Below, piece after piece: positions 12,057-42,204 of a DNA stretch of 64,000 nucleotides (positions are counted from its first letter, which is position 1; every line of letters starts with the position of its first letter). Position numbers and translations under genes: made by a program. The notes under the pieces were generated by a model. It was given only the letters and a program-made list of their open reading frames with translations. It searched no databases and was not told the DNA's origin. Source of the stretch: a phage. The stretch lies in assembly GCA_020773975.1 (NCBI GenBank), contig GCA_020773975.1_3638.1. One strand, 5' to 3'.

Positions 12057-12209
12057 CTCTTAGTTGGTTATAGATTATGTGGAAAACTACCTATTTTTGA
12101 TTTATGTTTCTTTGCCAAAGGGCTTCTCTTGGCGGGAATGTACCCCTCAAGCCCCTTGGCAACACGAATAGCTAACTCATCATATTTTACATGTATCCTC
12201 TTTTTTCTC

Positions 12210-15182
12210 TCAAAATGGAGAATCGCTATCTAAATCTTCAGGTTGCTCAATCACAACAGCAGGTTCTTGTTGAGGAACAGAAACAGCAATTTTCCCCACA
12301 GGTGTTTCAAGTTCCAGACTTTGAATCATTGATTTAGGTCTTAGCATTACCTCCCCGTTGAGTTTAAACATATTGTCTTCCCACACCCATCCTGACGCAT
12401 CAGAAAACTGACCATTATCATCCATAATCAGGGTATCCGCTATGCCTAATTTTTTGTGTGGACGGTTTTTCAAAACAACACTACGAATACGCCCACGAGA
12501 TCGGTCAGGGAGTTCTTCAGGCTCGACACCTAAGACAACCCACGATAACTGTTCGAGTGCTGCACTATTTCCTGTGACAAAAATATGTCCGTTGCGGCGT
12601 GCCACCCACATACCGGATGGTAATGTAAAGCAATACTTGCGACCATCTGGGGAAGGTACACGTTTAATAGAAGATTTATTTTTCCCTCCTTTACGTATAT
12701 GCATATACTTTGTGGCACAAACTCTTACTACATACAGAGGTTTGTGATCATATTTACCATCAAACGCACCATTGCCATTTTTTACAACAGACACAGACGT
12801 TCTATGCCCACAAGCACTGTAAGCAAATTGTAGGAAATCTGCCTCAAATTTGTTAATGGTTGATACCCTGTTTCTGTTTACAGAATCACCATCCCAATAC
12901 ATGACTTCATCACAGATAATCTCCAACTCGTGCTGTTTAAGATTAAACCATTCCTTTGTCACCCCTTTATACCCACAAGGGGCTTTAAATTGGTACTCTG
13001 TTCTGCCTTCATGCTTCCCGTGCAAATCAAAACTCTTGTAAGGAGTGTTCGTCTTCTTCAGTAGCATCTCAAGGCGTTGTTTCTTACGTTCTTTTTTGAT
13101 GCGTACAGCTACCCTTCCCGTTGATTCAGTAAGAACCGTCCCATCAGCATTTACAGCTATCTGTAAACGTAGTTGATCATCAGTTAACCCTAATGAACCA
13201 TCACATCCAGTGGTGAATGTAGTAGGTATTTTACCACGCATACCTGATCGTTTATTGGTATGGTCATGAACAACCTCCTGCATAGTTTTCATACGAAAAA
13301 TATCAGGCGTTCGATCGTTTACATACACAACACGATGTTCATCGCTCAACATCATGTCTACAACATGGCTATTAGAAAGATGCCACATTTCATTACAAGG
13401 TAGATTAATGTACGCCTCGGGATTTACGAAGGTCATTACACCATTTTTATCGTGTTGTGCAACCAAATCTCCTTCTACGTATTCATCAATACGTTTCCAG
13501 CCTTGCGGGGTTAAGAACTCTGTGCTTGCATCAACACAACCACGGAGATCCTCTTTCCGCACAGGATACCAAAACGGTAACAAATTACCTTCTTTATCTT
13601 TCGGAATTTGTATATCAACACGCTTCATATGACTGATACTGAGGATAAACACGTCATATTTTTTGCAGAAGGCAGCCAATTCCGTCATGATGTTATCTAA
13701 ATCTCTTCGCTCGTTATCGGATTTTAATCCTGATATCACCATCGATAAGTGATCTAAGATAATCCATCTACACCCATCAAGGAAAACCATCTGTTTCAAT
13801 TTTTGTAGTAATTGGTCAGTTGGTATTGAACCAAAGTGATCGAAAATTTTAACCTTATCTTCGGCAATCCATCGTTGGTGTATAGCTAAGTGCTGCTCAT
13901 CGGTAAGGAATTGTTCTGGGTCTGCAACAAATGCTTTCGGGTCAATCTTTAGCTCCTCAGCATATAAACTGTTTACAGACTCCTCCTCATCCTCCTCTAG
14001 ACGAATAATTGCAATTTTCTCGTTCTCTTTCCAACCGTCTAATCGGGGAATATCCATGTTACGGAGGTACTCGATAATTGCATACTCAATCTTTCTTGAG
14101 AAAGTTGATTTCCCAGCTCCAGATGGGCCTGTCAGTGTCCACAATTCTCCTGTTCGTGGGCCTCTTGTTAGTTCATACAAACGAGGAAAGCACGGCAACG
14201 GAACGCCATCTTTTTTCTTTTTACGGAGATTTTCAATAGATATTCTCTCCAACCCAATCAATTTGTCTGGAACATATTTATCCTGCGCTTTAGCAAACAT
14301 ATTCCAGATATCCATCCATTTACCTTTTTTGTAAATATCCCGGATATCTTTAACACCATTTGGGTCATTGCGCTCATTTGGGTATCGTGCAACATAGATG
14401 TTGTCAGACAGTAAAAAACCTGCGACATCATCTGTGGCTTCCTTACCTTTCTTAATTCTGTGTTCTTTTTCCCTTGCTGTGGCTTCATCATTGTCTAAGC
14501 CAAGGACAATCTTTTCATATTCCCTGATAAACTTTTCGTTGTGGGCGAATGTATCCACAGCATTGGCTGTACCACAGTTCAACCCGATAAAAGGTAATGT
14601 CGGGCAATTAGAAACCTCTTCCCCATCCTGAATTGCTTTGATGCCTTTTAAAGCATTGTTTGCCCACTCACGTACTGAACGTGACGTGTTAGGATTGCTA
14701 TGAAGGAATTTAATATACTCAAACCCAGCTTGCCAGCCAGCCGTTACATCACCTTCCCCCTCAACAATAAAGATCTGTTTTTTACCAGATCCCATAGAGG
14801 CCTCATGTTGACCAAAAAATTGAGAGGAAGCCTTTACTGTGCCAACAACAGAGAAATGCCCCTTTTTCTCTTTCGGAACAGTCCAGTCTCGTTTTTTGTA
14901 CCCTGTCAATTTCCCATATTTGTCATAATATGGAAGATATGTTGCCACCACTGTAGTACCGTCTTTCAAATCTGTTGCAGATCTGATCTTGAAGTACTTA
15001 GCTGCATCTAAACTAATATCCATTTGGGGGACAGCCAAGATCCTTGTACTATCTAGGACAGACTCTACAGTTTCTTCTTCTTTTTTCTGATAATTCACTT
15101 TACCACCACTTTTTGTAGGTCGGAATGCTTTTGGGTTCTCACCTTCAAAGTATGCACCAGCCCCCCATTTTGTCATCTTCAT
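12210..15182 (-). CDS. bifunctional primase-helicase (T7 gp4-like) containing an intein
   Basis: Toprim motifs IFIVEGEGD and GLDNDEA; Walker A GPSGAGKST; helicase motif H4 split as DLRG|intein|SAALEQLSWVVLG (T7 gp4 LRGSGALRQLSDTIIAL as recalled); acidic C-terminal tail ending in F. Confidence 0.85.
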   Translation of the reverse strand: MKMTKWGAGAYFEGENPKAFRPTKSGGKVNYQKKEEETVESVLDSTRILAVPQMDISLDAAKYFKIRSATDLKDGTTVVATYLPYYDKYGKLTGYKKRDWTVPKEKKGHFSVVGTVKASSQFFGQHEASMGSGKKQIFIVEGEGDVTAGWQAGFEYIKFLHSNPNTSRSVREWANNALKGIKAIQDGEEVSNCPTLPFIGLNCGTANAVDTFAHNEKFIREYEKIVLGLDNDEATAREKEHRIKKGKEATDDVAGFLLSDNIYVARYPNERNDPNGVKDIRDIYKKGKWMDIWNMFAKAQDKYVPDKLIGLERISIENLRKKKKDGVPLPCFPRLYELTRGPRTGELWTLTGPSGAGKSTFSRKIEYAIIEYLRNMDIPRLDGWKENEKIAIIRLEEDEEESVNSLYAEELKIDPKAFVADPEQFLTDEQHLAIHQRWIAEDKVKIFDHFGSIPTDQLLQKLKQMVFLDGCRWIILDHLSMVISGLKSDNERRDLDNIMTELAAFCKKYDVFILSISHMKRVDIQIPKDKEGNLLPFWYPVRKEDLRGCVDASTEFLTPQGWKRIDEYVEGDLVAQHDKNGVMTFVNPEAYINLPCNEMWHLSNSHVVDMMLSDEHRVVYVNDRTPDIFRMKTMQEVVHDHTNKRSGMRGKIPTTFTTGCDGSLGLTDDQLRLQIAVNADGTVLTESTGRVAVRIKKERKKQRLEMLLKKTNTPYKSFDLHGKHEGRTEYQFKAPCGYKGVTKEWFNLKQHELEIICDEVMYWDGDSVNRNRVSTINKFEADFLQFAYSACGHRTSVSVVKNGNGAFDGKYDHKPLYVVRVCATKYMHIRKGGKNKSSIKRVPSPDGRKYCFTLPSGMWVARRNGHIFVTGNSAALEQLSWVVLGVEPEELPDRSRGRIRSVVLKNRPHKKLGIADTLIMDDNGQFSDASGWVWEDNMFKLNGEVMLRPKSMIQSLELETPVGKIAVSVPQQEPAVVIEQPEDLDSDSPF
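12567..13538 (-). mobile_element. intein (324 aa) inserted in helicase motif H4, probably with a LAGLIDADG-like endonuclease domain
   Basis: Starts CVDASTEF (block A), ends ...NGHIFVTGN with +1 Ser; flanking extein sequence reconstitutes DLRGSAALEQ; internal IAVNADGTV and MYWDGDSV resemble LAGLIDADG motifs. Confidence 0.6.
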
Positions 15183-23579: not shown

Positions 23580-23754
23580 TGTTTTGTTTCTCTTTAACAA
23601 TAGGTGCTTTCTGAACAGAGTATACAAATGTTTTATTGTCTTCAATAAACTTTCTGCCCTGTTCTTCATCTTCAAAAATAATTGTGTCACACTTTGCCTT
23701 TAACATACCACGTTCTACAGTTGTGTGTGTCGTAGAAACAATTAAAGCCATCAA
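23566..23754 (-). CDS. hypothetical protein
   Basis: 62 aa, translationally coupled to neighbours. Confidence 0.35.
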   Translation of the reverse strand: MMALIVSTTHTTVERGMLKAKCDTIIFEDEEQGRKFIEDNKTFVYSVQKAPIVKEKQNNDYD

Positions 23755-24785
23755 GACACCTCGTTAAGTTGTTCCATGTACCAACTACGGGCTTTATTTG
23801 TTGTAAATTTTGCCACGTCTTTCATAGAAAGAGAATTGGCTTCTAACACATCTGCTTCTTCTTTGTTGATATCGCGGTTAACCCATGCGATAAATGCCCC
23901 CAGAGATGCGATGTCCAATCCAATTTCTTGCAACCCTTGTCGTAAACGGTTCTCAGTAACTGCATACTCCACAAAATCTTTGATAGATTGCAGTTTCACA
24001 GGATCAACAGCAGCCAGGGTTTTCACTTTAGAAACAGAATGTTTTTGCCCTTTCACTTTAAACCAAAGTGCAGAAACATGTGCCAAGTGGCGATCTTTAG
24101 GTGTCCATACCACACCCTCACCAACACCAGATACGCCAAAATATTTACCTACTGGACACTCTTTTTCCACACCTTCGGTAATCTGTGCAATTTCTGATTG
24201 CACTGTCTCTGGCATGTTAAAAGGAATATCCAGTTCCCACTTACCAAAAGTTAAAATATTATAAATACGTTGTTCTGGTAATCCAATGCCAAGAATATCG
24301 TTTAAAGCTAACCATTTCCGATGGTCATTCTCTTTTCCTACTGCCACACGGAAAATAGTAAAGAAAGGCATGATTTCAGATACCGCAACACCTTTCTGGA
24401 TACCTTTCCCTGCAAATTCCCCAGCGATTTCTACTGGGAACTTAAATTCAATACCACGATCTTCGCAGATCTGTTTGACTTGCTCCAACAGGCCTTTAGG
24501 GTCTTTTTCAACCATAAAGGCCATAAACCCATAATTATCTTCTTCCAGAGACAAAACGCGTTCTTTGGACTGGTATACAACCTCATTTTCAGAATTAAAG
24601 ACTACACGGCAATTAGTCCCGTGAATTTTAACTGTTCCTACATAAGGAATGAGATATTGGTCTGGAGAGGCAACCTTACGCTTTATATTGCCATTCTCAT
24701 CACGACCATCATAAGTCAGACGGTCATTAACCGCTCGGATAACATTGCGAAATTGACTAGTGCTTGGGTACTTAGTTGCTTGCAT
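23751..24785 (-). CDS. RNA ligase 2 family (T4 Rnl2-like)
   Basis: Nucleotidyltransferase lysine motif VKIHGTN (KxHGxN) near the N-terminus; 344 aa, same size class as T4 Rnl2. Confidence 0.7.
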   Translation of the reverse strand: MQATKYPSTSQFRNVIRAVNDRLTYDGRDENGNIKRKVASPDQYLIPYVGTVKIHGTNCRVVFNSENEVVYQSKERVLSLEEDNYGFMAFMVEKDPKGLLEQVKQICEDRGIEFKFPVEIAGEFAGKGIQKGVAVSEIMPFFTIFRVAVGKENDHRKWLALNDILGIGLPEQRIYNILTFGKWELDIPFNMPETVQSEIAQITEGVEKECPVGKYFGVSGVGEGVVWTPKDRHLAHVSALWFKVKGQKHSVSKVKTLAAVDPVKLQSIKDFVEYAVTENRLRQGLQEIGLDIASLGAFIAWVNRDINKEEADVLEANSLSMKDVAKFTTNKARSWYMEQLNEVS

Positions 24786-25158
24786 TACTATCTTCCTTAT
24801 TAATAAAAGTCACACCAAGAGTTGCCTGGGCAAGAAGTTTCGTGATCTCCTGGCTCCATACAGGACTGGAGATAAAATGTTGTAATTGGAGGCTACCTAA
24901 GCGATAGGCGCTGTTCATCGTAATAGCATAGATCTCCCCATCGTGCATAATCAGACTTTCGACAACAGAAGTCCTGATATTAGAACCACTAAATCCACGC
25001 TTTTTGAGGTCATCTGCTAAGTATCCGCAGATACAACGCACATCTTTTGTATCACCAAAACCGAAATAGGGTTCAGCACCAAACAGGATACCAGCGTATC
25101 TCTTCCCACAGACATAAGTATCTTTAGATACGCCTGTTACAGATTTACTTTCCATCAT
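24772..25158 (-). CDS. hypothetical protein
   Basis: ORF-track ORF in co-directional array. Confidence 0.5.
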   Translation of the reverse strand: MMESKSVTGVSKDTYVCGKRYAGILFGAEPYFGFGDTKDVRCICGYLADDLKKRGFSGSNIRTSVVESLIMHDGEIYAITMNSAYRLGSLQLQHFISSPVWSQEITKLLAQATLGVTFINKEDSNASN

Positions 25159-25340
25159 TGTCCCTCCACATCGTCAATATCTTCCATACCATCTTGCCAC
25201 AGAACTTCATAGCAAGCGTCATAAATTGCGCTCATAGCATCTTTACGATCTAACACATCTACAATTTTTGGATCAATACTTTTAATTGCTTCCGCAATTT
25301 TATCGTAAGCAATATCAGGATGCATGTTCTCTTTTGCCAT
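25155..25340 (-). CDS. hypothetical protein
   Basis: 61 aa acidic ORF. Confidence 0.4.
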   Translation of the reverse strand: MAKENMHPDIAYDKIAEAIKSIDPKIVDVLDRKDAMSAIYDACYEVLWQDGMEDIDDVEGQ

Positions 25341-25836
25341 CTGGGATCTCCTCTTCGTTTAAGACATAAATTGTCACATCACAATCATGGAGAACAGATT
25401 CTATCATAGTTTCTATGATTTTCCAATCCCCACCTGCTAGTCCAGCACCTATTTTTGGCAGCCCGATCTTATAATCAGACATAAAGCCATCTGTGTGCCT
25501 TTGCAAACAATCTCGCATTGCTGCTAAAGAATCGTAAAGGGCGTTATAATTCAGATCCCTCACACCCATTCTACGCCCATTATATCCGTATTGTGTGTAC
25601 AGATTAAAACCCGCCAGCTTACCTTCGTTCATGACAGCCCAAGTATAACTGCCCAGTTTTGTTCGATCACCTTTCTCTGTCTTTAAATCTTCAGCATACA
25701 TTTTTGGGAATGTATTCTTTATTTCTTTAGCAATTCCAGACCCCATGGTGCAAAATGTATTACAACCATGAGCTATCACATTAACATCCCTTTTAAGTGC
25801 TGCCTCTATTAAGCAACCAACTTTATACTTAAGCAT
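25315..25836 (-). CDS. macro-domain protein (ADP-ribose binding / ADP-ribosyl hydrolase-like)
   Basis: DVNVIAHGCNTFCTMGSGIA (cf. IVNAAN...GGGV) and GLPKIGAGLAGGDW (cf. P.IGTG.GG); start taken at the ATG at 25836 so that it abuts the upstream stop. Confidence 0.65.
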   Translation of the reverse strand: MLKYKVGCLIEAALKRDVNVIAHGCNTFCTMGSGIAKEIKNTFPKMYAEDLKTEKGDRTKLGSYTWAVMNEGKLAGFNLYTQYGYNGRRMGVRDLNYNALYDSLAAMRDCLQRHTDGFMSDYKIGLPKIGAGLAGGDWKIIETMIESVLHDCDVTIYVLNEEEIPDGKREHAS

Positions 25837-26011
25837 TGTCTGATACCTCTTCGCATTCGTATGGATAGATATCCAGTCTTTTCCCATTCCATTCGCAAGA
25901 GTAACACTCAAGAAAACTACCATTAAATATTTCTTCTCTTACTTCAAGAATATCTCCTGTTTTTGGATATCCATCAACATCCGAAAAATCAGAAATCATT
26001 TTAACCTTCAT
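25829..26011 (-). CDS. hypothetical protein
   Basis: 60 aa; part of a chain of translationally coupled small ORFs. Confidence 0.4.
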   Translation of the reverse strand: MKVKMISDFSDVDGYPKTGDILEVREEIFNGSFLECYSCEWNGKRLDIYPYECEEVSDNA

Positions 26012-26183
26012 TCACAACTCCTTTCAAGGAAGGCATTCATACTTTCCAATGCCTCGCTTTTATTTTTAGCACAAACAACAAACACACGCTTATTTTTATA
26101 GGTGTATCCTGCCATGACCATATCGGATCTTTCAACCCACCATTTCTCATGTAGCTGGTCTTTCTTAAATTTATGTTTTGCCA

Positions 26184-26600
26184 TCAACGATTATACCATA
26201 CCACATGTGTGGCCCAGTCTGGCTTTTTATCCCATACTGAAACGTCAGATTCATAGCTATCGTTAGGACACCAGTATCCATTCCCATCTTCAGGGCTAAA
26301 AATCGCCGCTTGGACACCGAAATTCCAATCATCAAGATCCATCACCTTAGCTCCAGCGGTCTTAAAATTAGCATCTGTTTTAAAATGCTCTTTCAGAAGA
26401 TTACTGACAGATGGTATAGGCATATAAGCAATGACAGGTTCACAATCAAAGTAGAAAGACCCATTGATGACATGAGCAATACAGTTATTGCCTTGATAGG
26501 ATTCACAAATGCCAATCTCACCATCTGCCAAGACTACAAGCCATCTACCAACATCAAGATCTTTAACACCATTTGGTGTTTTTATCCACATATCATTCAT
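26184..26600 (-). CDS. hypothetical protein
   Basis: ORF-track ORF in co-directional array. Confidence 0.5.
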   Translation of the reverse strand: MNDMWIKTPNGVKDLDVGRWLVVLADGEIGICESYQGNNCIAHVINGSFYFDCEPVIAYMPIPSVSNLLKEHFKTDANFKTAGAKVMDLDDWNFGVQAAIFSPEDGNGYWCPNDSYESDVSVWDKKPDWATHVVWYNR

Positions 26601-27849: not shown

Positions 27850-28084
27850 TCGTCTCGTTCCTTAAATCGTTCTTCTGCTCAAGATAACTTTCAATGATAC
27901 TGTCTATATCTGCTGATTCAATATCAGCATACAGATTCATAATGCTTGATGCAAGGTCTTTGGCAGAAAAATTGTCTACTCTTTCTGCACCAAAAACTAA
28001 AAACCATTGTCGTCGTGTCATCCTCGCTCTAACAACGGTTTTTAAATACTCCGCTCTCTCTGAAAAATCAAGAGGTTTTACCAC
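27842..28084 (-). CDS. hypothetical protein
   Basis: ORF-track ORF in co-directional array. Confidence 0.45.
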   Translation of the reverse strand: MVKPLDFSERAEYLKTVVRARMTRRQWFLVFGAERVDNFSAKDLASSIMNLYADIESADIDSIIESYLEQKNDLRNETNV

Positions 28085-28434
28085 TTATCCACCCAAACTC
28101 TGTTCTCATCACACCAGTCGTAGAACTCGTTCAAAGCTAGATTGAACTGCTGTAGAGGACTCACGATAAGGTTGGGGTTATCTTCTTTGCTACAGATTTC
28201 CAAGTATTCTTCATATGTGAGAATATGCTGCATTTCTTCAAGAATATCATACAACCACCCATCGAAGTCAGCATTCTCTTCATCAGTTTGCTTTGGTAAA
28301 AGTCGTTTTACTCTTTTTACAAGCATGTCCACAAACAGGTGAATATTATCATCTGCCCAAGGCTCTACCTTACCTTCTACGGGATTACCTTTCCAGATAT
28401 CACGTAAATCAAGTCGATGTTTCCACTGTGCCAT
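28078..28434 (-). CDS. hypothetical protein
   Basis: ORF-track ORF in co-directional array. Confidence 0.5.
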   Translation of the reverse strand: MAQWKHRLDLRDIWKGNPVEGKVEPWADDNIHLFVDMLVKRVKRLLPKQTDEENADFDGWLYDILEEMQHILTYEEYLEICSKEDNPNLIVSPLQQFNLALNEFYDWCDENRVWVDKW

Positions 28435-28435
28435 T

Positions 28436-28630
28436 TTATAACTCCTTAACAGATTCTAAATCAAGATATTCATCACCACCCACTCGTTTACCGTCTTTCT
28501 TACGGTATTTTGCCTTGCTTTCAAATGCTACCCAATAAGCACCTTCATCTTTTAACTTGTCTTCCCATACCCAACCGAACTGCTTTTTCCTAATGGTTCC
28601 TTTGTGGGTATATTGTTGTTTACAATACAT
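28436..28630 (-). CDS. hypothetical protein
   Basis: ORF-track ORF in co-directional array. Confidence 0.4.
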   Translation of the reverse strand: MYCKQQYTHKGTIRKKQFGWVWEDKLKDEGAYWVAFESKAKYRKKDGKRVGGDEYLDLESVKEL

Positions 28631-28631
28631 C

Positions 28632-28847
28632 CTAATCCTCCCATTTTATCCATAAAGGGTATTCTGCAACATGCACTTTCTTACCCTTTTTGTTAATAAA
28701 AGTATACTCAACAAACTTTGCTATGTAAAACCTATTGTAATCCTCTGTACCTTTAACAGGACAGTCTGTTTTCCTTCTCTCCACCCATTCTCTGTGGATC
28801 ACCGCTTTGTTCTTTGGATCAAATGGATGTGGTTGATAAACATTCAT
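28632..28847 (-). CDS. hypothetical protein
   Basis: ORF-track ORF in co-directional array. Confidence 0.4.
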   Translation of the reverse strand: MNVYQPHPFDPKNKAVIHREWVERRKTDCPVKGTEDYNRFYIAKFVEYTFINKKGKKVHVAEYPLWIKWED

Positions 28848-29344
28848 TATTTCCCCTCGAATCTTTTTCTTGCATCAGCAAGTTTAAGATGCATTTCATG
28901 GTATTTCTTTAACCTTGCCAAATCCTTATCAGATAAGGATTTAAGACGTTTTACGTCCATATTGTCTTTTAAATCAGCGAGTTTTACACGAATCGCATCA
29001 TAATTAGTACAGATGCCCTCAATGTACTCTTCTTCAGTCAGGCTCTGTTTCTTTGTTAGCAGAAGAACTGCATCTTTTACTCTGTTAGTGAACCCTAACA
29101 TTACCAAATCGTAAGCTGTAACTTTAGTATCCTCAAGGATATCGTGAAGGACACCGATTGCCATTAGCTGTAAGTCATCATTACCAAGTTCATGCATCAC
29201 CCTTAATGGGTGAAGAATGTATGGCATTCCACCACGATCTTTCTGCTTAAGATGGTTTTCAGAGGCCAACTTTACAGCTAAAGCCAACTCCTGATGGGGT
29301 CTTAAATCTTGCATATTACTGGGGACAGACTTCGATTGTACCAT
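28847..29344 (-). CDS. HD-domain (p)ppGpp hydrolase-like protein (small alarmone hydrolase, SpoT/MESH1-type)
   Basis: GGMPYILHPLRV ... AIGVLHDILEDT, matching the RelA/SpoT hydrolase HD motif (H.L.VA ... LLHD..EDT); 165 aa. Confidence 0.65.
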   Translation of the reverse strand: MVQSKSVPSNMQDLRPHQELALAVKLASENHLKQKDRGGMPYILHPLRVMHELGNDDLQLMAIGVLHDILEDTKVTAYDLVMLGFTNRVKDAVLLLTKKQSLTEEEYIEGICTNYDAIRVKLADLKDNMDVKRLKSLSDKDLARLKKYHEMHLKLADARKRFEGK

Positions 29345-30162
29345 TTATATGTCTCTTCCATGTTAAAGGGTTTTATACCGATATTATCAAAATCTACAAG
29401 AGAATCAAGAAAAAATTCTCCTTTGTACCCAGCCATTTCTATCATTGAGCGTTCCTCTTGGGTAGGGATCTCCCCCAAGATAAGCTCTTTTAGCTCCTTT
29501 TCTACAACACGATGGTACATTACTTCTTGGGTATTACACACCAAGTAGTAGTGCGATTTCTTATTCTCTACGTTTGGCGTGTTGGCTATCTTAATTGCAG
29601 CATGACCTACATAATCATACATCTTTGTTTGGTAAAACATTCCATAACAACCCGCCAGAGAAAAGGATCCAAAACTGGAGTTAATCTCCCTGATGTGGAG
29701 AATATCTGGGTTTGTTCTGACATAGGAAGCCTTTATGGAAAACATATTACCATCCCAATGCCCCAATTGGGACAAAACAGACAGGAATTTTTGTGTTCGT
29801 GCAGACAACGATCCTGCTAAACACATTCCATAATTAAAGCCTTGGAAAGAAATTGTTATTTGCCCACAAGTAATATCATAGCTTGAAAACTCATGCGTTA
29901 AGTTTACGCTTGCCATGTAAGCACGCTCGTCAGCTTCAACATAATATTTCCAGTAACATTTCCTATCCCGAGTATCAAAACACATAAGCACAGCATGTTT
30001 TATGAGTTCTATTAAAGGGTTTGGTTCATGGTGGCGACTTTCAACTTCCCTTATAATGGCTTCACGGAATACATTAAAATCTATTTTCATAGATTTTGTG
30101 TGATACAGGTAGGCATCAAAGTAAGAAGAAATGTTTTCGTCAGGTATCTTTGTCATGGTCAA
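29302..30162 (-). CDS. hypothetical protein
   Basis: 286 aa; first gene of the minus-strand block next to the divergent region. Confidence 0.5.
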   Translation of the reverse strand: MTMTKIPDENISSYFDAYLYHTKSMKIDFNVFREAIIREVESRHHEPNPLIELIKHAVLMCFDTRDRKCYWKYYVEADERAYMASVNLTHEFSSYDITCGQITISFQGFNYGMCLAGSLSARTQKFLSVLSQLGHWDGNMFSIKASYVRTNPDILHIREINSSFGSFSLAGCYGMFYQTKMYDYVGHAAIKIANTPNVENKKSHYYLVCNTQEVMYHRVVEKELKELILGEIPTQEERSMIEMAGYKGEFFLDSLVDFDNIGIKPFNMEETYKWYNRSLSPVICKI

Positions 30163-30267
30163 ACTCCAAAAATATTTTCATTGGTTATGAGGAATGTACA
30201 GAACTAAAAAATCAAAGTCAACGCTTGACAAACTGGAAATTTGTGAGATACTACGAACACAAGTTAA
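30163..30267. promoter_or_regulatory. divergent promoter region between the minus- and plus-strand blocks
   Basis: TTGACA at 30225-30230 followed at 15-17 nt by GATACT/TACTAC; AT-rich. Confidence 0.35.
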
Positions 30268-31083
30268 GTGACAGAGATATTCTGTATGAACTGGAATGAA
30301 GAGTTTACAACCAAAGAGATAAGGTATCTCAAAACACGACTCTTTTTCAAAAAGAGGAATACCAAAGCGAGAGGTATAGAGTTTAATCTGACAGAAGATG
30401 ACTGGTTTATGATGGGCAACGGATTACTTGGGAAAGGTGTTTGTGATTACACAGGCCTACCTTTTTCTGCAACACCTAATGACCCCCTCTACCCGTCTGT
30501 TGAACGAATAGATGACAAAAAAGGGTATGTTCGTGGAAACGTTTGTGTAGTCGGTAAGAGAGCAAACCAGTTAAAAGATTTTCTTGTAGACAAAAAGAAA
30601 GCTCTAACGATTGTAGATCCACTCGACATGGATATCGTCCAAGGAATGATGTTAAATATGTCAAAGGATCACTTGGAAAAGTTAAAACTTAAATACATAC
30701 CTACGGAAACAGATATGAAAGAGACAGAGAACGTAATTATTGATGAGCAGGTTGAAGAGATGAAAGAAAAATCTCTTCCTGACGATGTTGAAATTGCACT
30801 TGCATACGCAAACTACTGTAAAACATTTGCGGAAGCAGGTATGAATGTTAGCGTTACTTATGCACAATTTAAAGCTAAATATTCAAGAAACACCTGTTCT
30901 CTAACAGGGGAGAAGTTAACAAAAACACCAAAACCTATTCTCATTATGGATTTAGATCTTGGGTTCGCAAAAGACAACTTTATTATTGTTTCTGAAAAGA
31001 TGGAAACAGCATTAACACAACTCATGATCAATACGAAAATGAGTTTACCAAAAATTACAGCTATGCTGAACAAGGTGGTTTAA
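30268..31083 (+). CDS. hypothetical protein with two repeated domains, possible HNH-like endonuclease (tentative)
   Basis: ORF-track start is GTG; first ATG at 30286; motif PSVERIDDKKGYVRGNVCVVGKRAN recalls endonuclease/DNA-binding modules. Confidence 0.35.
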   Translation: MTEIFCMNWNEEFTTKEIRYLKTRLFFKKRNTKARGIEFNLTEDDWFMMGNGLLGKGVCDYTGLPFSATPNDPLYPSVERIDDKKGYVRGNVCVVGKRANQLKDFLVDKKKALTIVDPLDMDIVQGMMLNMSKDHLEKLKLKYIPTETDMKETENVIIDEQVEEMKEKSLPDDVEIALAYANYCKTFAEAGMNVSVTYAQFKAKYSRNTCSLTGEKLTKTPKPILIMDLDLGFAKDNFIIVSEKMETALTQLMINTKMSLPKITAMLNKVV

Positions 31084-31271
31084 TGAAAGATTCTCTACCA
31101 AAACCGTGTCCGTTTTGTAAAAATGATGCACTTCTGCTTAAACAATCACGCTCTGGTCAAACAATATTTCACTACATTTACTGCCAGAAATGTGGAACAT
31201 CTGGGCCACAGGCTCTGAGTGAGCCTACTGCTGTAAGTTGGTGGAATGTCGGTAATAAAGAGGTAAAATAA
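31083..31271 (+). CDS. Lar-family restriction alleviation protein (Zn ribbon)
   Basis: 62 aa; KPCPFC ... CQKCGTSGP ... AVSWWN matches the Lar-family pattern CPFCG...C..CG..GP...A...WN. Confidence 0.55.
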   Translation: MKDSLPKPCPFCKNDALLLKQSRSGQTIFHYIYCQKCGTSGPQALSEPTAVSWWNVGNKEVK

Positions 31272-31272
31272 T

Positions 31273-31536
31273 ATGTTTGAAGAGATTCTTGGAAGGCCAG
31301 CTACCGATCAAGAAGCCCAGATGATTGAATCTGGAAAGAAACCAAATTTTAAAGTTGGTGATAGGGTTCGTTATAAAAATGCCAGAAACGTTATAACTTC
31401 TGTAGAGGCTATAGTATTATTTATGTTCCCACACCAACCAACTGGAGGACAAGTTCCGGTATGGGGAGCCAGATTAACTGGCGGTAATAATTTTATGCCG
31501 CTTGATACCATAGAATTATTTACAAGTAAAAAATAA
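31273..31536 (+). CDS. hypothetical protein
   Basis: ORF-track ORF in co-directional array. Confidence 0.45.
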   Translation: MFEEILGRPATDQEAQMIESGKKPNFKVGDRVRYKNARNVITSVEAIVLFMFPHQPTGGQVPVWGARLTGGNNFMPLDTIELFTSKK

Positions 31537-31544
31537 CAAGTATA

Positions 31545-31573
31545 ATAGGCTGTCGAAAGATAGCCTATTTTTG
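31545..31573 (+). terminator. possible rho-independent terminator
   Basis: ATAGGCT-(10 nt loop)-AGCCTAT followed by TTTTTG. Confidence 0.4.
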
Positions 31574-31587
31574 TATGGAGCATAATT

Positions 31588-33024
31588 ATGCAAAAAGACG
31601 AACATGAAATGATTGCCAAGTTAGAGAAGGATGCTGTAAAAGTTATCCAATCGGCACGAATAGCTCTTTTAAAGTACAGACCATTTTACGGGACTTTGTT
31701 AAGTTCTCTACCCTTAGTTGCTAACTGGAAATGGTTGCCAACAGCAGCGACTGATCACAAAAACCTCTACTTCAACCCTGAGTTTATTATGGGTATGCCT
31801 GAAGAAAGGAAGAAGAAGGTTTTTGAGCGTGTGGATAATCACCCCACAATGACACAACAAGAAAAAGATGACTATAAAGACTATGTGAACGTATTTTATC
31901 GTAAGAAAACACCCAAAGAGGTTGTTGTTATTCTTATGCACGAGCTACGTCATATTACTAACGATCATTTATCCCGTGGAAAAGCATTTGATTCTAAAAC
32001 CTACAACACAGCAGCAGATCATTATATTAACACGGATTTAGTGGTGTCTGATCTTGGGCCACGCTCCAGCCAGATGTGTTTCTTCCCAATGGGGAAACAG
32101 ACAACCTTTGACAAAGGTAAAGAGTTTGGGTTTATGGCTTATTGCTACTGTGATTTTAATTTCCACGGTAAGACAGCGGAGGAGATTTACAGTCTCATAA
32201 ACAAAGGCCAACCGTCTGTTGGTAAACCTATGGGCACACACATAGGTGATTATGATCAAGACAGCAATATCCTAGGATATGAAGATCCTCACCCAGTGCC
32301 AAGCCAAGCAGAAAAAGATGATAATATGTCGTGGTCATCTGGTCTTATCGAGGCCGCGATGGAAGCAGCGGGAGGAGAGGGGCCGAAAGAGGTGCGTGAC
32401 GTTATTGCAAGAATGCGTAAACCACACATAAATTATCTTCAGATAATCAAACAGCGTATGCTTTCTCGGATCAAGTCTAACCTGACATACAGGAAACCAT
32501 CTCGTAGGTCTGGATCTATGACACAGGCACTTCGGCAGTATGGAGCTATTGGAAAAAAACAGCATATTGTTTTACCAGGAAGGGAGTACGATAATACTAT
32601 AGATATAGTTATTGGCTTCGATGTGTCTGGATCAATTTCGAAGGCGAATTTAGACAAAATCTTCGGAGAAATTGTAGGATTATGCCAGCTTTACCGCGTT
32701 TTTCGCGTGACATTGTTCTGTTGGTCAACAAAAGTCGGAGAGGTTAAAGTTTATACACATGATAATATCAAGGAAATGCTTGATTATAAAGTAAATTCTA
32801 CGGGTGGGACACTTGCAGCATCGGCTTTTGAGTATATTGAAAATAACATTTTTGATGCAAAAGACGTTATTATTTTTACAGACGGATATATAGAGGATTT
32901 AAGACACAAGAAAAAAGATTGGGGACGCAAATGGGATATTCTTTGGGTTATTTGTGGTCGCGGAAATAATAAATTTGTACCACCTTTCGGAAGGGCTGTA
33001 AATTTAGATGAACACGCAAAATAA
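31588..33024 (+). CDS. vWA-domain protein with N-terminal putative metallopeptidase-like domain
   Basis: HExxH-type motif LMHELRHI; MIDAS motif IVIGFDVSGSIS and FTDGY; 478 aa; candidate partner of the MoxR-like ATPase. Confidence 0.65.
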   Translation: MQKDEHEMIAKLEKDAVKVIQSARIALLKYRPFYGTLLSSLPLVANWKWLPTAATDHKNLYFNPEFIMGMPEERKKKVFERVDNHPTMTQQEKDDYKDYVNVFYRKKTPKEVVVILMHELRHITNDHLSRGKAFDSKTYNTAADHYINTDLVVSDLGPRSSQMCFFPMGKQTTFDKGKEFGFMAYCYCDFNFHGKTAEEIYSLINKGQPSVGKPMGTHIGDYDQDSNILGYEDPHPVPSQAEKDDNMSWSSGLIEAAMEAAGGEGPKEVRDVIARMRKPHINYLQIIKQRMLSRIKSNLTYRKPSRRSGSMTQALRQYGAIGKKQHIVLPGREYDNTIDIVIGFDVSGSISKANLDKIFGEIVGLCQLYRVFRVTLFCWSTKVGEVKVYTHDNIKEMLDYKVNSTGGTLAASAFEYIENNIFDAKDVIIFTDGYIEDLRHKKKDWGRKWDILWVICGRGNNKFVPPFGRAVNLDEHAK

Positions 33025-33442
33025 ATTAAAAGTTTTCGACATGTTAGTGGATATTCACTTCCTGTCTCTAGGGTGTGCCATAGATATATCATGGAAGAGT
33101 TGGAACGGTGGTAAATTTATTTTTGGGTCGCTTAGACAAGATACCACAAAATATTTTGTAAGTTGCACAAGGAAATCTCTTGAAATACAGAAATTTTTTG
33201 GGTCTGGTTGGAAAACATTAATTGATCCCAGCATGACACTTGACCCACAAAATATATCAGAGAGTGAAAAACTCTTGGTAAATATTCTCCCAGGACTCAC
33301 AGATTTTGAGAGGGAACTCTACGAAGTGGCTGGGAATGTGGCTAAAATGTGGGCAGATGACCACACACAAGAAACGGATGCAAGGGAGTACGTGAGGAAG
33401 TTTCTCCATAGTCATCTCGATTGGGATACACCAGAAGAGTAA
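33008..33442 (+). CDS. hypothetical protein
   Basis: ORF-track ORF in co-directional array. Confidence 0.45.
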   Translation: MNTQNKLKVFDMLVDIHFLSLGCAIDISWKSWNGGKFIFGSLRQDTTKYFVSCTRKSLEIQKFFGSGWKTLIDPSMTLDPQNISESEKLLVNILPGLTDFERELYEVAGNVAKMWADDHTQETDAREYVRKFLHSHLDWDTPEE

Positions 33443-33479
33443 AATTTAACCACACAGGGAGGCTAACGCACGTAGTCTC

Positions 33480-33535
33480 CCATATGTCCCCATTTCAGGG
33501 ACATGGGTATGTCCCTGTTTTGGGGACACAATACT
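33480..33535. promoter_or_regulatory. cluster of GTCCC/GGGAC palindromes
   Basis: ATGTCCCCATTTCAGGGACATGGGTATGTCCCTGTTTTGGGGACAC: four half-sites forming two palindromes. Confidence 0.45.
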
Positions 33536-33539
33536 AACT

Positions 33540-33740
33540 GATCAAATTAAACTAACTTATAAGATCTATTAAATATAATACTACGTATTATAATACTATG
33601 ATCTATTTAATATAATATATTATACTACGTATAATATAATTTAATATGATCTAATATAATATAATATAAATTATATAATATAATTTAATATAATACTACG
33701 TATTATATATTATAATATATATATTATATAAAATTTATTT
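33540..33740. repeat. AT-rich iteron region (candidate origin of replication)
   Basis: About 200 bp of roughly 90 percent A+T with three copies of GATCTA(T)TTAATATAATA and three copies of ACTACGTAT. Confidence 0.6.
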
Positions 33741-33750
33741 AAAATACACT

Positions 33751-33895
33751 AAGTCTTGAAGAATGTCAAGACTTGATTTTAAATATTTTTGTTGATATGA
33801 TTCGATTGAGTCGAATCGTATGGTTCGATGATTTCGAATCATAGAGTTCATAGTGTTTTGCCTGAAAGTGTGAGTCGATGAGACTCTTCAGGCAA
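33751..33895. promoter_or_regulatory. series of perfect palindromes/hairpins
   Basis: AAGTCTTGA-AGAATG-TCAAGACTT (33751-33774), GATTCGA-TTGAG-TCGAATC, TTCGAATC repeats, GCCTGAA...GAGTC-GATGA-GACTC...TTCAGGC. Confidence 0.5.
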
Positions 33896-34183
33896 TACGT
33901 GAGTGTGTAAGATGCTCACTGCGCTGATAGCTTGTGACCATCTAACCCTCATGAGCCATTCTGAGATAAACCCACATCAACAAACCCTACAGGTTTGTCT
34001 CTGTGTGTTGATCTCAATCATGGATTCGGGTTGTCACAGGTCACTATGTGACTCTGTGTGTGGGGGATTTTGAATGTGTACCGGAGCATGGCGCACAGGA
34101 CTGGTTCATCTGTCTGTCTCAACTGGGGCGCGGCGGGTGTCAAGGTTTAGTTTTACGTTTGTTTGGGTGTGGAGGAGAGTTTT

Positions 34184-34501
34184 ATGGCCTACGATGAAAA
34201 TTCTATCCGTGTGCTGTCACCTGAGGATATCAAACAACGATTTGACTGGGTACGCATCGGGGATTTGGTTCACGAATATAACTTACCTGTGGATTGGGTC
34301 AGACGTGGTTTTGAAGCGTGCTGGAGGTTAGACATCGATCCTGATTATTTTATCAACAAGTACATCCTCAAGCAGGATGTTGATCCTGTACCTGATTTTG
34401 AGGCTGTTTTTAAGGAGATTGTTATGGAGTCTCGATTCAAGGATCAGGTATGCACTCGGCAGTCTCAAAAACGCACCTACGAATCAGATTTGCAAATGTA
34501 G
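34184..34501 (+). CDS. hypothetical protein
   Basis: ATG at 34184 preceded by GGAGGAGAG; the ORF-track start at 34163 is TTG. Confidence 0.5.
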   Translation: MAYDENSIRVLSPEDIKQRFDWVRIGDLVHEYNLPVDWVRRGFEACWRLDIDPDYFINKYILKQDVDPVPDFEAVFKEIVMESRFKDQVCTRQSQKRTYESDLQM

Positions 34502-34580
34502 CCTACGGATAGGTAAAAACATCAACGAAAATCGATTCTCCGCTGGATCTACAGAGTAAATTTTCAATTTTCGGAGAAAA

Positions 34581-34955
34581 ATGATGAAACGTACCATGAC
34601 AGATAAAGAGCGCGAAATTGCCCTCCAGTTAGCAAGAGAAAAAAGAGAGCAACAAAAGCGAGAATGGACTGCGCTGGCAGAAGCGGGAAAAATACGCCAA
34701 CATTTCGCTGACGCTAATCACTGGACAAGGCTTCGTAGCAAGTATAGGATTTCGTCTCCGTACAAATTAGCTCCCGCAGAAAGTGAGCATGGAATGAAAA
34801 TTCTTAGACGAACGATCAGACTGACCGGAGGATTCGAGTGGTTCAATGAGTCTTTCGGTATGGACATCAAGCAGTTTGTCAGAATGAACCATACGTGGCC
34901 TGCATACGCCATTCAGGGGATCATCCTTGAAGAGTGGGATGATTATCAGAATTGA
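34581..34955 (+). CDS. hypothetical protein
   Basis: ATG preceded by GGAGA. Confidence 0.5.
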   Translation: MMKRTMTDKEREIALQLAREKREQQKREWTALAEAGKIRQHFADANHWTRLRSKYRISSPYKLAPAESEHGMKILRRTIRLTGGFEWFNESFGMDIKQFVRMNHTWPAYAIQGIILEEWDDYQN

Positions 34956-35048
34956 TTTTTGTTGTATTTCTGGTAGCCAACTGGTATGTTTATTACAGGG
35001 AGTGATAAACACCCCTGTGTTACTTGTTTTATACAGGAGAGTTGATAT

Positions 35049-35663
35049 ATGTCTTGGCCTTTTTTGATTTATCTTATTGATGTTCTTAGTACGGATGGGA
35101 AGTATGATGGCTGGGGATTCTTGTTGTTTCTGTGTGTTATTGTATACATGCTGATGCGTATTCTTCCAAAGATCCTCGAAAAACCTAAGCTGGATATCTA
35201 TCCAGGACAAAACCTTGTTTTAGCACAAGACTGGTCACGATTTAAAGCCGGAGATGTTCTTGTTGTGAAGGATACTGCGGGTGGTGATGTTCTTCTTCGC
35301 CACGGGGAGGAATCACTTGGTTATTGGGTGGGTAAGAGCATTTTACGAAAAGTGTGCAAACTTGATGAAAAACAAGAATATATCCCACAGCAAGATGCGA
35401 TGGAAACACCGCGAAAGTTAACTGTTATTGCTATGGTTGTCTGTGTAATAGGTATTCTATATGCCAACTTCATGCCGCAGAAAGAGACTTCTTACAAGAT
35501 GCTTGCTGCGTATGTAGGTCAAAACATTGTAGAATCTCCAAGGACTCAACAACTTGCAGACAGCACAATCAAGTATCTGGATGCCCAAATCAAGAAGTAC
35601 ACCCAAGAATTGGGTGACGAGGGGAGTAAGGAGTCTAAGCCTGGTGAGAAGGTGAAAGAATGA
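35049..35663 (+). CDS. membrane protein
   Basis: N-terminal TM (WGFLLFLCVIVYMLM) and a second TM (LTVIAMVVCVIGILYA); AGGAGAG SD. Confidence 0.5.
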   Translation: MSWPFLIYLIDVLSTDGKYDGWGFLLFLCVIVYMLMRILPKILEKPKLDIYPGQNLVLAQDWSRFKAGDVLVVKDTAGGDVLLRHGEESLGYWVGKSILRKVCKLDEKQEYIPQQDAMETPRKLTVIAMVVCVIGILYANFMPQKETSYKMLAAYVGQNIVESPRTQQLADSTIKYLDAQIKKYTQELGDEGSKESKPGEKVKE

Positions 35664-36025
35664 TGGGAAAGCCATTTGAAATAAAACGAATAGCGTTGGA
35701 CTTTGATGATACTTTCACGCTAGATACTGAGAGATGGTCACAATTTGTTGCTATATTCGCAGCAAAAGATTCAGGTTGGTGTGTTAAATTTGTTACTTAT
35801 CGATTCGACTCAGATGATAACTCTGATATCCAGTTTTGGGCTGAAAAACTAGGTATCGAAATAATTTATTGCAATGGTATCCAGAAAGCACAAGTTTGTG
35901 CAGAACTTGGTTGGATCCCAGATGTGTGGATAGACGATTTTCCTGTTCTCATTCCTGTGAAACAACAACTACAGGGTATGCTTTTAGGAATAGAAAATAA
36001 CGAAGAAAAACACAATGTTAAGTAG
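35660..36025 (+). CDS. hypothetical protein
   Basis: ATGATG start overlapping the upstream stop. Confidence 0.5.
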   Translation: MMGKPFEIKRIALDFDDTFTLDTERWSQFVAIFAAKDSGWCVKFVTYRFDSDDNSDIQFWAEKLGIEIIYCNGIQKAQVCAELGWIPDVWIDDFPVLIPVKQQLQGMLLGIENNEEKHNVK

Positions 36026-36262
36026 TTTAAGGGGGAGTGTTGAGAAGCGTTGCGTATTACAAATTCAAATGTTGGGAGAAACTCTATGATTTGAGCTACC
36101 TTATTTTTGGGAATCTCCCTGTCACTGAAGACATTAAACACAAAATGTATCTTGCATACATGAAATACCGTCTCCACGAAAGAAAGAGTGGTTGATGAGA
36201 ATGTTATGATGCCCTGTAGATACTCTCTACAGGGCTTGAATGCTTAATCACAGGACTTACCA

Positions 36263-37087
36263 ATGACAAGTATTTTACACACGACAGGTATTTTACCACA
36301 CTATCAGAAGGACTATTCTTTCCCTGATTTCTCTGGGGATATGTTGCAAATATACGACAAAGTGCAAGGCGAAGTGTCGGAGCTACAGTTTAGTTCAGAC
36401 CCTGATGATGAGCAAGAGTTTGATAAACAGATTTGTCGTGTAGAAAACGAGCTTATAGAGCTACAATCATTAGCCAAATCAACAGATATCGAAGACTTAA
36501 GGCGATACGTCGAGAATCTTGAAAATTTAGTGTTCGGGCTTTCGCAAGCTATTATAAACATTGGTGAAATTGCTAAAATTGCCTCTGACAAGTTGCCAGA
36601 CAACGCAGAAGATATTGAAGAAGCGTTGCAGAATATCTGCTATGAAGGAAGTTCTGCTCTCGGTTGTGAATGTAATCTAGGAAATGCTCTTGAAGAACGT
36701 GGGTGGAGCCTAGCCCAAAAAACTTTTGTTTATCTTGTTATTGGTGGTGAGTTCCCACGACTTTTACAACTTAATGCCCTTTTTGGAAACAGTCAGAGCG
36801 ATAATATTGCATTAGGTATTGATGGTTGGTTCTGCTTAAGAGGTAAAGAATTAACATTTTGTCGTGGCGATGATGTGTTAATTCTCAATGCTTCTAAACC
36901 TGGTGTTGGAATAACAGTAAGACTTAATGGTAAGTCCACTAATTTCCACACCACAGAATTGACAGATATTTTTATGGACATATTCGATCCTACAGAAGAC
37001 GAAATTCTTATGTATGAAATGACCAGTGGAAAAAGGTATGATATTTTGTTGTGGAGAAATATTTTCGGTAAGAAGAAAAGTTTATAG
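36263..37087 (+). CDS. hypothetical protein
   Basis: 274-aa acidic ORF. Confidence 0.5.
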   Translation: MTSILHTTGILPHYQKDYSFPDFSGDMLQIYDKVQGEVSELQFSSDPDDEQEFDKQICRVENELIELQSLAKSTDIEDLRRYVENLENLVFGLSQAIINIGEIAKIASDKLPDNAEDIEEALQNICYEGSSALGCECNLGNALEERGWSLAQKTFVYLVIGGEFPRLLQLNALFGNSQSDNIALGIDGWFCLRGKELTFCRGDDVLILNASKPGVGITVRLNGKSTNFHTTELTDIFMDIFDPTEDEILMYEMTSGKRYDILLWRNIFGKKKSL

Positions 37088-37114
37088 TATGATATTTTAT
37101 CGCTGATATTTGTT

Positions 37115-37142
37115 TTCCCTGTGATATTTTTGTCACAGGGAA
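37115..37142 (+). other. perfect 10-bp hairpin
   Basis: TTCCCTGTGA-TATTTTTG-TCACAGGGAA directly after the preceding stop; no U-tract. Confidence 0.4.
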
Positions 37143-37359
37143 AGTTTCAACAACAGATATTTTCTTGATACTTTAAAACTCTACCAGAATTTAAAATTCT
37201 GTAAATTTAGAAAACTATTACTTATAAGCGTTTCGACACAATTTTGTTATGAAAGCCTTGTTTTTATATAAAAACCTGTTTTAGCATGAGTGGTAGGATC
37301 ACACTCCATACTACCTTTATTCCTACAGATGAGCACCTCCATGTCCGAAAACTCGGTTC

Positions 37360-37560
37360 TCGATCGAAAATTCATTTTCCAGATCGTATTTGCTCCTTAC
37401 GGAGAAAATTTTTTAGGGCTACAAATTTCAGTTCTCGATCAGTTTTTCGATTTCAAAATCGTATTTGTTTTTTCTTGCGAAAAATTTCGCACGCTCAGTT
37501 CTCGATCGAGTTTTCAAAATCGAAATCGTATTTGCTCTATAGCGCGAAAAAATTTTTATG
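37360..37560. repeat. three imperfect direct repeats of about 65 bp (GTTCTCGATC ... ATCGTATTTG ... GMGAAAAATTTTT)
   Basis: GTTCTCGATC begins at 37366, 37431 and 37498; each unit also contains ATCGTATTTG and an A-run/T-run; a fourth diverged copy is at 45983. Confidence 0.6.
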
Positions 37561-37909
37561 GGTATCATAATTCTATCACACACTTAAACGCAAAGCAACA
37601 TAAAAATTTTTGTTGAATGATAATCATTCTTATTTGCATAATGACAGGCAGGAGCGGTGTCTTATCCTCCCCCGTTGACCATCGTCGCCGTAGTTTGAAG
37701 TTTATAGCCGTTCTCGGCTTATATCTTTGTTAGATATAGATTAGCATAATTGATAAAGAAAGCAAGTTTTAGGCATAATCTTTACGTTTCTTTACAAATT
37801 TATTTTTGACGAGTTACCGGCGATCGACCTTCCAACCAGCGCCCTGATATGTTAGCCCCGCCTTTACGCCGTGGGGATGGCGTTTCCTCTTCTGTATGTG
37901 AAACATTAT

Positions 37910-37932
37910 AAGCCCGACCCCCGGGCTTGTCA
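37910..37932 (-). terminator. hairpin downstream of the minus-strand HTH gene
   Basis: AAGCCCG-GGGGT-CGGGCTT on the minus strand followed by a partly T-rich tract. Confidence 0.4.
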
Positions 37933-37939
37933 AACATTT

Positions 37940-40698: not shown

Positions 40699-40723
40699 TC
40701 CTGTTAATCATCTTGGTGGTTGT

Positions 40724-41074: not shown

Positions 41075-41075
41075 T

Positions 41076-41258: not shown

Positions 41259-41264
41259 CAGACA

Positions 41265-41394: not shown

Positions 41395-41415
41395 TAAAAA
41401 TATCTATAAAAATGC

Positions 41416-42201: not shown

Positions 42202-42204
42202 CGC

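Follow-up and report, generated by a model that had tools for sequence, protein, structure and literature searches.

A stand-alone macrodomain protein of a Vequintavirinae-type phage as a candidate ADP-ribose-1''-phosphate phosphatase

A stretch of phage DNA of 64,000 nucleotides (NCBI GenBank assembly GCA_020773975.1, contig GCA_020773975.1_3638.1; hereafter the window) carries on its minus strand a gene for a small macrodomain protein. As judged from its sequence and a predicted structure, the product is a stand-alone macrodomain and belongs to the Poa1p / Tk.4 / Adpp family (PHROG 335). The length of one loop, the position of the protein in trees and the genes carried by its relatives place it nearer to Adpp, a phosphatase of ADP-ribose-1''-phosphate (ADPR-1''P), than to Tk.4 of phage T4. 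We see about an even chance that it is an Adpp-type ADPR-1''P phosphatase that works with a distantly encoded NARP1, a phage pathway for the reconstitution of nicotinamide adenine dinucleotide (NAD+).

The gene belongs to a widely annotated family whose function was recently worked out in two homologs. A HIDEN-SEQ study found T4 tk.4 to be the single gene required on a host carrying DarTG2, on which the knockout is sensitive, and the product was named AdfM there, with DNA de-ADP-ribosylation deduced from this genetic evidence (bioRxiv 10.1101/2025.11.20.689424). The second homolog is linked to aRES, a RES-domain defense protein that converts NAD+ to nicotinamide and ADPR-1''P, the latter being a compound that NARP1 is unable to use (Osterman et al., bioRxiv 10.64898/2026.01.28.702374). 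According to the same report, a Poa1p-like Macro protein called Adpp is encoded in 15% of NARP1 operons, and the Adpp of Vibrio phage Gary converts ADPR-1P to ADP-ribose (ADPR) and is needed for NARP1 to overcome aRES. Yeast Poa1p is likewise an ADPR-1''P phosphatase, with a native role in a tRNA-splicing by-product pathway (Osterman et al.).

If the window protein acts in the same manner, it would bind ADPR and remove by hydrolysis a group attached to the distal ribose at position 1''. Its likeliest substrate would be the ADPR-1''P made by RES-type NADases, and removal of the phosphate would yield ADPR, from which the phage's own NARP1 (Adps plus Namat) would then rebuild NAD+. With NARP1 presumably encoded elsewhere in the genome, the macro protein would serve as an Adpp in trans, outside the NARP1 operon. 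Here we infer which substrate the protein acts on, that NARP1 is its partner and which defense it counters; the gene, its family features and the genomic context of its relatives are described below.

The gene and its product

The gene, its probable ribosome-binding signal and three motif-bearing segments of the protein are as follows.

25315..25836, minus strand: macrodomain gene, an open reading frame (ORF) with its translation, orthologous to Av05_00156 of Escherichia phage Av-05 and annotated there at the same coordinates
25846..25849, minus strand: Shine-Dalgarno-like GAGG, 9 nt 5' of the ATG at 25836, from direct reading of the sequence (GAAGAGGTATCAGACA-ATG)
25729..25770, minus strand: residues 23-36, HGCNTFCTMGSGIA, containing His23 (Poa1p-type), Asn26, Thr30 (Ser30 in Poa1p) and the first Gly-rich (GxG) phosphate-binding loop
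25546..25593, minus strand: residues 82-97, Q-YGYNGRRMGVRDLN-Y, with Gln82 at the position of the DarG/TARG1 catalytic Lys, followed by a 14-residue loop
25423..25458, minus strand: residues 127-138, PKIGAGLAGGDW, a predicted second Gly-rich ADP-ribose-binding loop

The ORF call on the window gives a gene of 522 nt, or 173 codons plus a stop. Its longest possible ORF extends to 25923, and the ATG at 25836 is preferred as the start because of the GAGG element 5' to it, the overlap with the stop of the gene upstream and the agreement of starts among relatives. The stop of the upstream gene, which encodes 60 aa, overlaps the macro start by 8 nt (25829-25836), and the homologs and both Av-05 annotations begin at the position equivalent to this ATG. 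On the plus strand opposite the gene, the ORF list contains no overlapping ORF of at least 40 aa. This is a real gene, and the same gene is already annotated in Av-05, where the 522-nt Av05_00156 is called a "putative phosphatase" in GenBank and a "macro domain-containing protein" in RefSeq. An earlier note, made from the letters alone, had described a 173-aa stand-alone macro domain at 25315-25836 with two glycine-rich ADP-ribose motifs. ORF, profile and model data agree with its coordinates and length, to which the minus strand must be added, and both motifs are present, as TMGSGIA (residues 30-36) and PKIGAGLAGGDW.

The window is ~97% identical to Av-05 (Vequintavirinae, Avunavirus) and 96% identical to phages TH18, 18-1-2, 19-1-2 and 24-2-1. 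Members of the protein family occur in 3004 of 50,697 phage records searched with tblastn, and a protein database yields 827 matches to the window protein at E<=1e-5. The phages that carry it include Vequintavirinae, Phapecoctavirus, T-even and other Straboviridae (as tk.4), Felixounavirus, Ackermannviridae, Pseudomonas Otagovirus and T5-like Vibrio phages.

Fold and family assignment

Profile searches assign the protein to PHROG 335, "phosphatase" (E=1.5e-61), and it narrowly passes the Pfam Macro model PF01661, with 22.3 bits against a gathering cut-off of 22.0. Among PDB sequences it matches BT1257 (the best match, E=7e-8), yeast Poa1p (E=3.6e-7), a Streptomyces macrodomain, TARG1 and DarG. 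From 67 homologs, AlphaFold2 produced a model with a predicted local distance difference test score of 94.8 and a predicted template modeling score of 0.90, which has the three-layer alpha/beta/alpha arrangement of the macro fold. When this model is submitted to Foldseek, the TARG1, BT1257, Poa1p and DarG macrodomains are recovered at probability 1.0, with template modeling scores of 0.7-0.87 to TARG1, Poa1p and DarG and E~1e-9 for Poa1p-ADPR complexes. The macro identity of the protein is thus far above chance.

Conservation was scored among the same 67 homologs. N26, G34, I35 and A36 are invariant, H23, C25, T30 and M31 reach 90% conservation or more, and the segments MGSGIA (31-36) and IGAGLAGG (129-136) are invariant or nearly so. 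Q82 and Y97, which bracket the 14-residue loop, are invariant throughout the family, as are P127, G130, G132, G136 and W138. In alignments to Poa1p, TARG1 and DarG, H23 and T30 correspond to H23 and S30 of Poa1p, residues whose alanine mutants are represented by PDB entries 6lfs (H23A) and 6lft (S30A). These His and Ser/Thr positions are common to the window protein, Poa1p, T4 Tk.4 and Adpp. Asn26 falls in the same motif as N23 of the AdfM of phage PhiKZ, an active-site Asn whose N23A mutant has reduced activity (PMC13309987). With these residues in place, the window protein is most likely catalytically competent.

Comparison with characterized macrodomains narrows the assignment further. DarG models are the sole matches of the protein in the NCBIfam and PADLOC libraries, but the NCBIfam model (NF048014) scores 37.8 bits against a curated cut-off of 250. 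The window protein shares with DarG2, PhiKZ gp104 and human TARG1 the broad macro class, the conserved Asn and the Gly-rich loops, and these proteins are among the best Foldseek matches. However, the catalytic Lys of DarG2 and PhiKZ (in FPTK) and of TARG1 (K84) is replaced by Gln82, such that the window FNLYTQ stands opposite FNFPTK of DarG in the hidden Markov model (HMM) alignment, and Ala134 occupies the position of the TARG1 catalytic Asp125. Moreover, the protein is a single domain of 173 aa that lacks the C-terminal DarT-binding domain of DarG2 and has no adjacent darT. DarG membership was rejected on the grounds of the NCBIfam score, the Gln in place of the catalytic Lys and this architecture; membership in TARG1/OARD1 failed because the Lys84 and Asp125 positions hold Q82 and A134.

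Poa1p (PDB 6LFQ/6LFR) resembles the window protein in its fold, in the equivalents of H23 and S/T30 and in the long loop that follows the Q82 beta-strand. It differs in having Ser at the Q82 position and F152 at that of Ala134, in its identity to the window protein of only ~23%, and in being a eukaryotic housekeeping enzyme of tRNA splicing. The Bacteroides thetaiotaomicron protein BT1257 (PDB 2FG1/2AFC) has the same Q, a 14-residue loop and the PRIGCGLAGGKW motif, although it is bacterial, ~26% identical and uncharacterized.

Loop length and phylogeny

Two features, a loop length and the phylogeny, separate subtypes within the family. The loop is that between Q82 and Y97, whose length was surveyed in 135 sequences. 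Loops of 12-15 residues, a range that includes the 14 of the window protein, occur in Adpp, Poa1p and BT1257 as well as in most macros linked to NARP1. The Felix-type protein, TARG1, DarG and PhiKZ AdfM, like every T4-type Tk.4 encoded adjacent to vs, have an 8-residue loop instead. The pattern GR..G..D[LVIT][DNS], which the window loop displays, occurs in 26 sequences, 17 of which are NARP1-linked. Counted per locus, linkage to NARP1 is seen for 34/72 long loops, 4/24 intermediate loops and 1/23 short loops (long versus the rest, 34/72 versus 5/47). Strong at the level of single loci, this association between loop length and NARP1 linkage is overall suggestive. Net charge and isoelectric point, used as a proxy for DNA binding, gave no discrimination.

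A residue of the TARG1 Lys84 type acts at the ribose 1'' position in published macrodomain mechanisms. Because Lys84 precedes this loop in TARG1, the loop plausibly shapes leaving-group specificity.

For T4-type AdfM proteins we used a working definition that combines vs-tk.4-tk synteny with an 8-residue [FY][QE]PGPN loop. The window gene has the longer loop, and neither vs nor tk is nearby. When the loop columns are left out of neighbor-joining trees, 92/100 bootstraps place T4 Tk.4 outside the smallest clade that contains the window protein and the macro of phage PHB09. Osterman et al. (bioRxiv 10.64898/2026.01.28.702374) include the PHB09 macro, which shares 47% identity with the window protein, among the NARP1-associated macros of their Table S1.

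For a sequence that stands in for Adpp itself, we used gp176 of phage Achelous, which is encoded between Adps and Namat and is 98.7% identical to Gary Adpp. The window protein resembles Adpp as a stand-alone macro of ~160-170 aa that has the H-x-C-N and Gly-rich motifs, has a long Q-to-Y loop and comes from a phage lineage with NARP1-encoding members. The loops themselves differ (GRRMGVRDLN in the window protein versus HAHKVAPGRNTD in Adpp), as do the gene locations.

NARP1 in the relatives of the phage

The 80 IMG/VR loci closest to the window protein include 32 in which Adps and/or Namat lie no more than 10 kb from the macro gene, in many cases right beside it. In Achelous and PHB09 the macro gene lies inside or beside Adps-Namat. 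The Vequintavirinae loci (L010-L020) are organized differently, with a MoxR-like ATPase 2-4 kb upstream of the macro gene, an RNA ligase 1-1.8 kb downstream and NARP1 not nearby. Nevertheless, Av-05 encodes a Namat and Adps pair, and the Namat homologs of Av-05, TH18, 18-1-2 and 24-2-1 share 97-100% identity with one another. Namat is also present, at 74-76% identity, in Iguana, 4MG, Ro1 and other Vequintavirinae-type phages that carry the macro gene as well.

Several observations weigh against the proposal that the window protein is an Adpp. Adps and Namat were sought in the 64-kb window and none was found; NARP1 was seen in the genomes of relatives, and the window represents 64 kb of its own genome. 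In those relatives, mapping places Namat ~70 kb from the macro gene, so that the operon linkage of the published NARP1-AP arrangement is absent. That arrangement is defined by a macro within two genes of Adps-Namat, the distance used in the published screen (bioRxiv 10.64898/2026.01.28.702374), and the window gene falls outside it. The association with loop length weakens when sequences are clustered at 70% identity, to 14/34 versus 4/22 (Fisher p=0.087). Finally, the identity of the window protein to Adpp (36%, measured on gp176) equals its identity to T4 Tk.4 (35-36%), and the most recent common ancestor of the window protein and Adpp excludes T4 Tk.4 in just 49/100 bootstraps of trees that are neighbor-joining reconstructions on ~140 columns. 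Direct assignment to Adpp or Tk.4 by tree was dropped, given support of 46-49% for the deep split; only the PHB09-type grouping is solid (92%).

Mapping on TH18 puts Namat ~45 kb before the start of the window, which is consistent with the absence of NARP1 from the window. Phage names from Escherichia, Salmonella, Klebsiella, Cronobacter and Erwinia are missing from the supplementary files of the published screen (0/5; bioRxiv 10.64898/2026.01.28.702374), as fits a screen limited to two genes around NARP1. The Nudix gene of Av-05 was also sought in the 64-kb window and is absent from it.

A more tentative reading than the assignment to Adpp-type phosphatases is an "unlinked" form of NARP1-AP in enterobacterial phages of the Vequintavirinae type. 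There, a long-loop macro whose gene lies tens of kilobases away from Adps-Namat, and shares a transcript with an RNA ligase gene, would make ADPR from ADPR-1''P in trans, and loop length (8 versus 12-15 residues) would act as the specificity switch within the Tk.4 family.

Alternative functions

The alternative that deserves most attention is an AdfM-like role, in which the protein would do what has been proposed for T4 Tk.4 and remove the ADP-ribose with which DarT2 modifies thymidine of single-stranded phage DNA. We regard it as rather unlikely, even though Tk.4 is a clear homolog, with 35% identity over 159 aa, a family-HMM E value of 5e-38, shared H-x-C-N...T-M-G-x-G and P-[KR]-I-G-A-G motifs, and the same Gln at the DarG-Lys position, in a protein that is also small, stand-alone and from a virulent E. 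coli myovirus. The sensitivity of the tk.4 knockout to DarTG2 (bioRxiv 10.1101/2025.11.20.689424) speaks for such a role, and PhiKZ gp104, likewise named AdfM, frees single-stranded DNA of DarT2 ADP-ribose in vitro (Morgan et al., PMC13309987). However, gp104 is a macro of the genuine DarG-like kind and carries the lysine motif FPTK, whose Lys is Gln82 in the window protein, and the T4 evidence is genetic rather than enzymological. The DarG matches in NCBIfam and PADLOC count toward this role, and the low NCBIfam score counts against it. Neither the 8-residue PGPN-type loop nor the vs-tk synteny of every T4-type Tk.4 is found for the window protein, which also occupies another neighborhood and, in the trees described above, joins NARP1-adjacent macros apart from Tk.4. 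The two roles need not compete, since macro domains are often promiscuous, and an Adpp-type phosphatase may have a secondary activity on DarT2-modified DNA. The earlier note had proposed a counter to host ADP-ribosylating toxins or defenses such as DarT. Experiments on homologs (T4 tk.4, Gary Adpp) sustain the general idea of a phage macro directed against ADP-ribose- or NAD+-based defense; reversal of DarT modification is not the best-supported form of it, because the window protein has no DarG/TARG1 Lys, is not of the short-loop Tk.4 subtype and clusters with NARP1-associated macros.

The proximity of an RNA ligase gene raises the thought of an RNA-repair accessory, which would either clear the ADPR-1''P formed during 2'-phosphate removal or de-ADP-ribosylate RNA ends or bases before tRNA or mRNA is sealed. 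The macro and ligase genes form one tight minus-strand array with overlapping junctions, their linkage is kept across L010-L020, and an RNA ligase lies 3-8 kb from the macro gene in Achelous, PHB09 and loci L087, L130 and L132. The native pathway of Poa1p is of this kind, and a survey ties Macro to KptA/2H RNA repair (PMC9503650). Even so, an accessory role of this sort is improbable, considering that the portions of Av-05 looked at contain no annotated Tpt1/KptA or 2H phosphoesterase, that the ligase of unrelated phages accompanies the entire NARP1-macro block and not the macro alone, that the linkage is absent from the Phapecoctavirus, T4-type, Felix-type and Cba120 homologs, and that the subtype label of the ligase is putative.

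ADP-ribose derivatives are ligands of macro domains, and phages are known to use sequestration. The protein could therefore be imagined as a non-catalytic binder or sponge of immune signals derived from ADP-ribose, such as cyclic ADPR isomers, and the same survey proposes soluble ADPr derivatives as targets of phage macros (PMC9503650). We consider this highly improbable. Across the family, the catalysis-relevant residues N26, H23, T30 and Q82 show little or no variation, both characterized family members are enzymatic or presumed to be so, and no macro-type sponge turned up in the literature consulted for the family. The signal-binding role that had also been suggested for this gene has thus found no specific support, and the residues conserved are those of an enzyme.

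Implications

As a member of a widely annotated family, the gene is mildly new in only two respects, namely the unlinked partnership with NARP1 in enterobacterial Vequintavirinae and the rule based on loop length. If the assignment to an Adpp with an unlinked NARP1 is correct, then NARP1-bearing myoviruses of E. coli, Klebsiella, Salmonella and Cronobacter (the rV5/PVP-SE1 type) would already be armed against RES-type NAD+ depletion, which would bear on the prediction of host range for therapeutic phages. Anti-RES counter-defense would then extend to phage groups that are missing from the operon-based published list, and the published figure of 15% of NARP1 phages with the extended pathway would be an undercount because only macros within two genes of NARP1 were included. 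If the rule holds, short loops would mark hydrolases of macromolecular substrates (DNA-ADPr) and long loops would mark small-molecule ADPR-1''P phosphatases. Such a dichotomy would provide a cheap sequence rule for splitting ~3000 phage genes annotated as "Tk.4/phosphatase" into two functional classes.

Neighboring genes and additional observations

The neighborhood of the macro gene consists of small ORFs, the ligase and an ATPase. Its annotated features include the following.

23751..24785, minus strand: RNA ligase gene in the same tight array (Pfam RNA_ligase PF09414, 38 bits; PHROG 548, E=4e-73)
24772-25158, minus strand: ORF of 128 aa between macro and ligase (PHROG 16099 "methyltransferase," E=3e-60; no Pfam match; small for a methyltransferase)
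25829-26011 and 26008-26187, minus strand: two ORFs of 59-60 aa with the PHROG-derived names "exonuclease" and "baseplate wedge subunit"
28847-29344, minus strand: HD-domain metal-dependent phosphohydrolase (PHROG 990, E=7e-55; weak Pfam HD_4)

The ligase gene begins ~530 bp downstream of the macro gene, with ORFs of 61 and 128 aa between them. The macro gene had been described as sitting next to RNA ligase 2; a ligase is indeed part of the same array, but two small ORFs intervene and the Rnl2 label is putative. A comparison of the ligase with PDB sequences returned no match at E<=1e-3 and did not recover T4 Rnl2, so the subtype could not be confirmed by that route. The linkage is one of conserved synteny within Vequintavirinae rather than direct adjacency. 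Matches to a sigma-70-like promoter in the sequence were not above the shuffled expectation (22 versus 24.7), and operon boundaries were therefore not drawn from them.

An RNA ligase (PHROG 548 / PF09414) is near the macro gene in all Vequintavirinae. It is also found ~1-8 kb from the macro in unrelated groups in which NARP1 lies beside the macro, namely Vibrio Thalassavirus, Pseudomonas Otagovirus and an IMG/VR contig. The ligase loci are L009:1-228, L093:1-776, L087 at ~1417, and L130 and L132 (~4-5 kb from the macro).

For products as small as those of the two 59-60-aa ORFs the inherited names are implausible; they are probably annotation artifacts, which are also present in the RefSeq record of Av-05. 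The phosphohydrolase gene adjoins a gene that is annotated as thymidylate kinase in Av-05.

Av-05 contains, at 110042-113592 (L004:7043-10593), a T4-like block comprising regB, vs.1, vs, tk.4, tk and rI, whose Tk.4 is 85% identical to that of T4 and would bring the macro genes of Av-05 to two. A second macro gene of this type beside vs and tk was sought in the 64-kb window and is absent, and the collinear region of the window (~40500-44500) lacks the block. Av-05 is consequently a mosaic phage, or else its assembly is chimeric. A Tk.4 of 85% identity is also present on an IMG/VR contig of 121,442 bp (L098).

The TH18 record (133,882 bp) is apparently made up of two 18-1-2 contigs (79,447 + 54,435 bp) joined end to end. 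Because the window spans this junction (~27900-38000), the order of the published record is arbitrary relative to the real genome. Lastly, the DNA polymerase of Av-05 (78072-82318) is annotated as three pieces with HNH homing endonuclease genes between them, and the collinear part of the window (~8700-13000) probably carries the same split polymerase.

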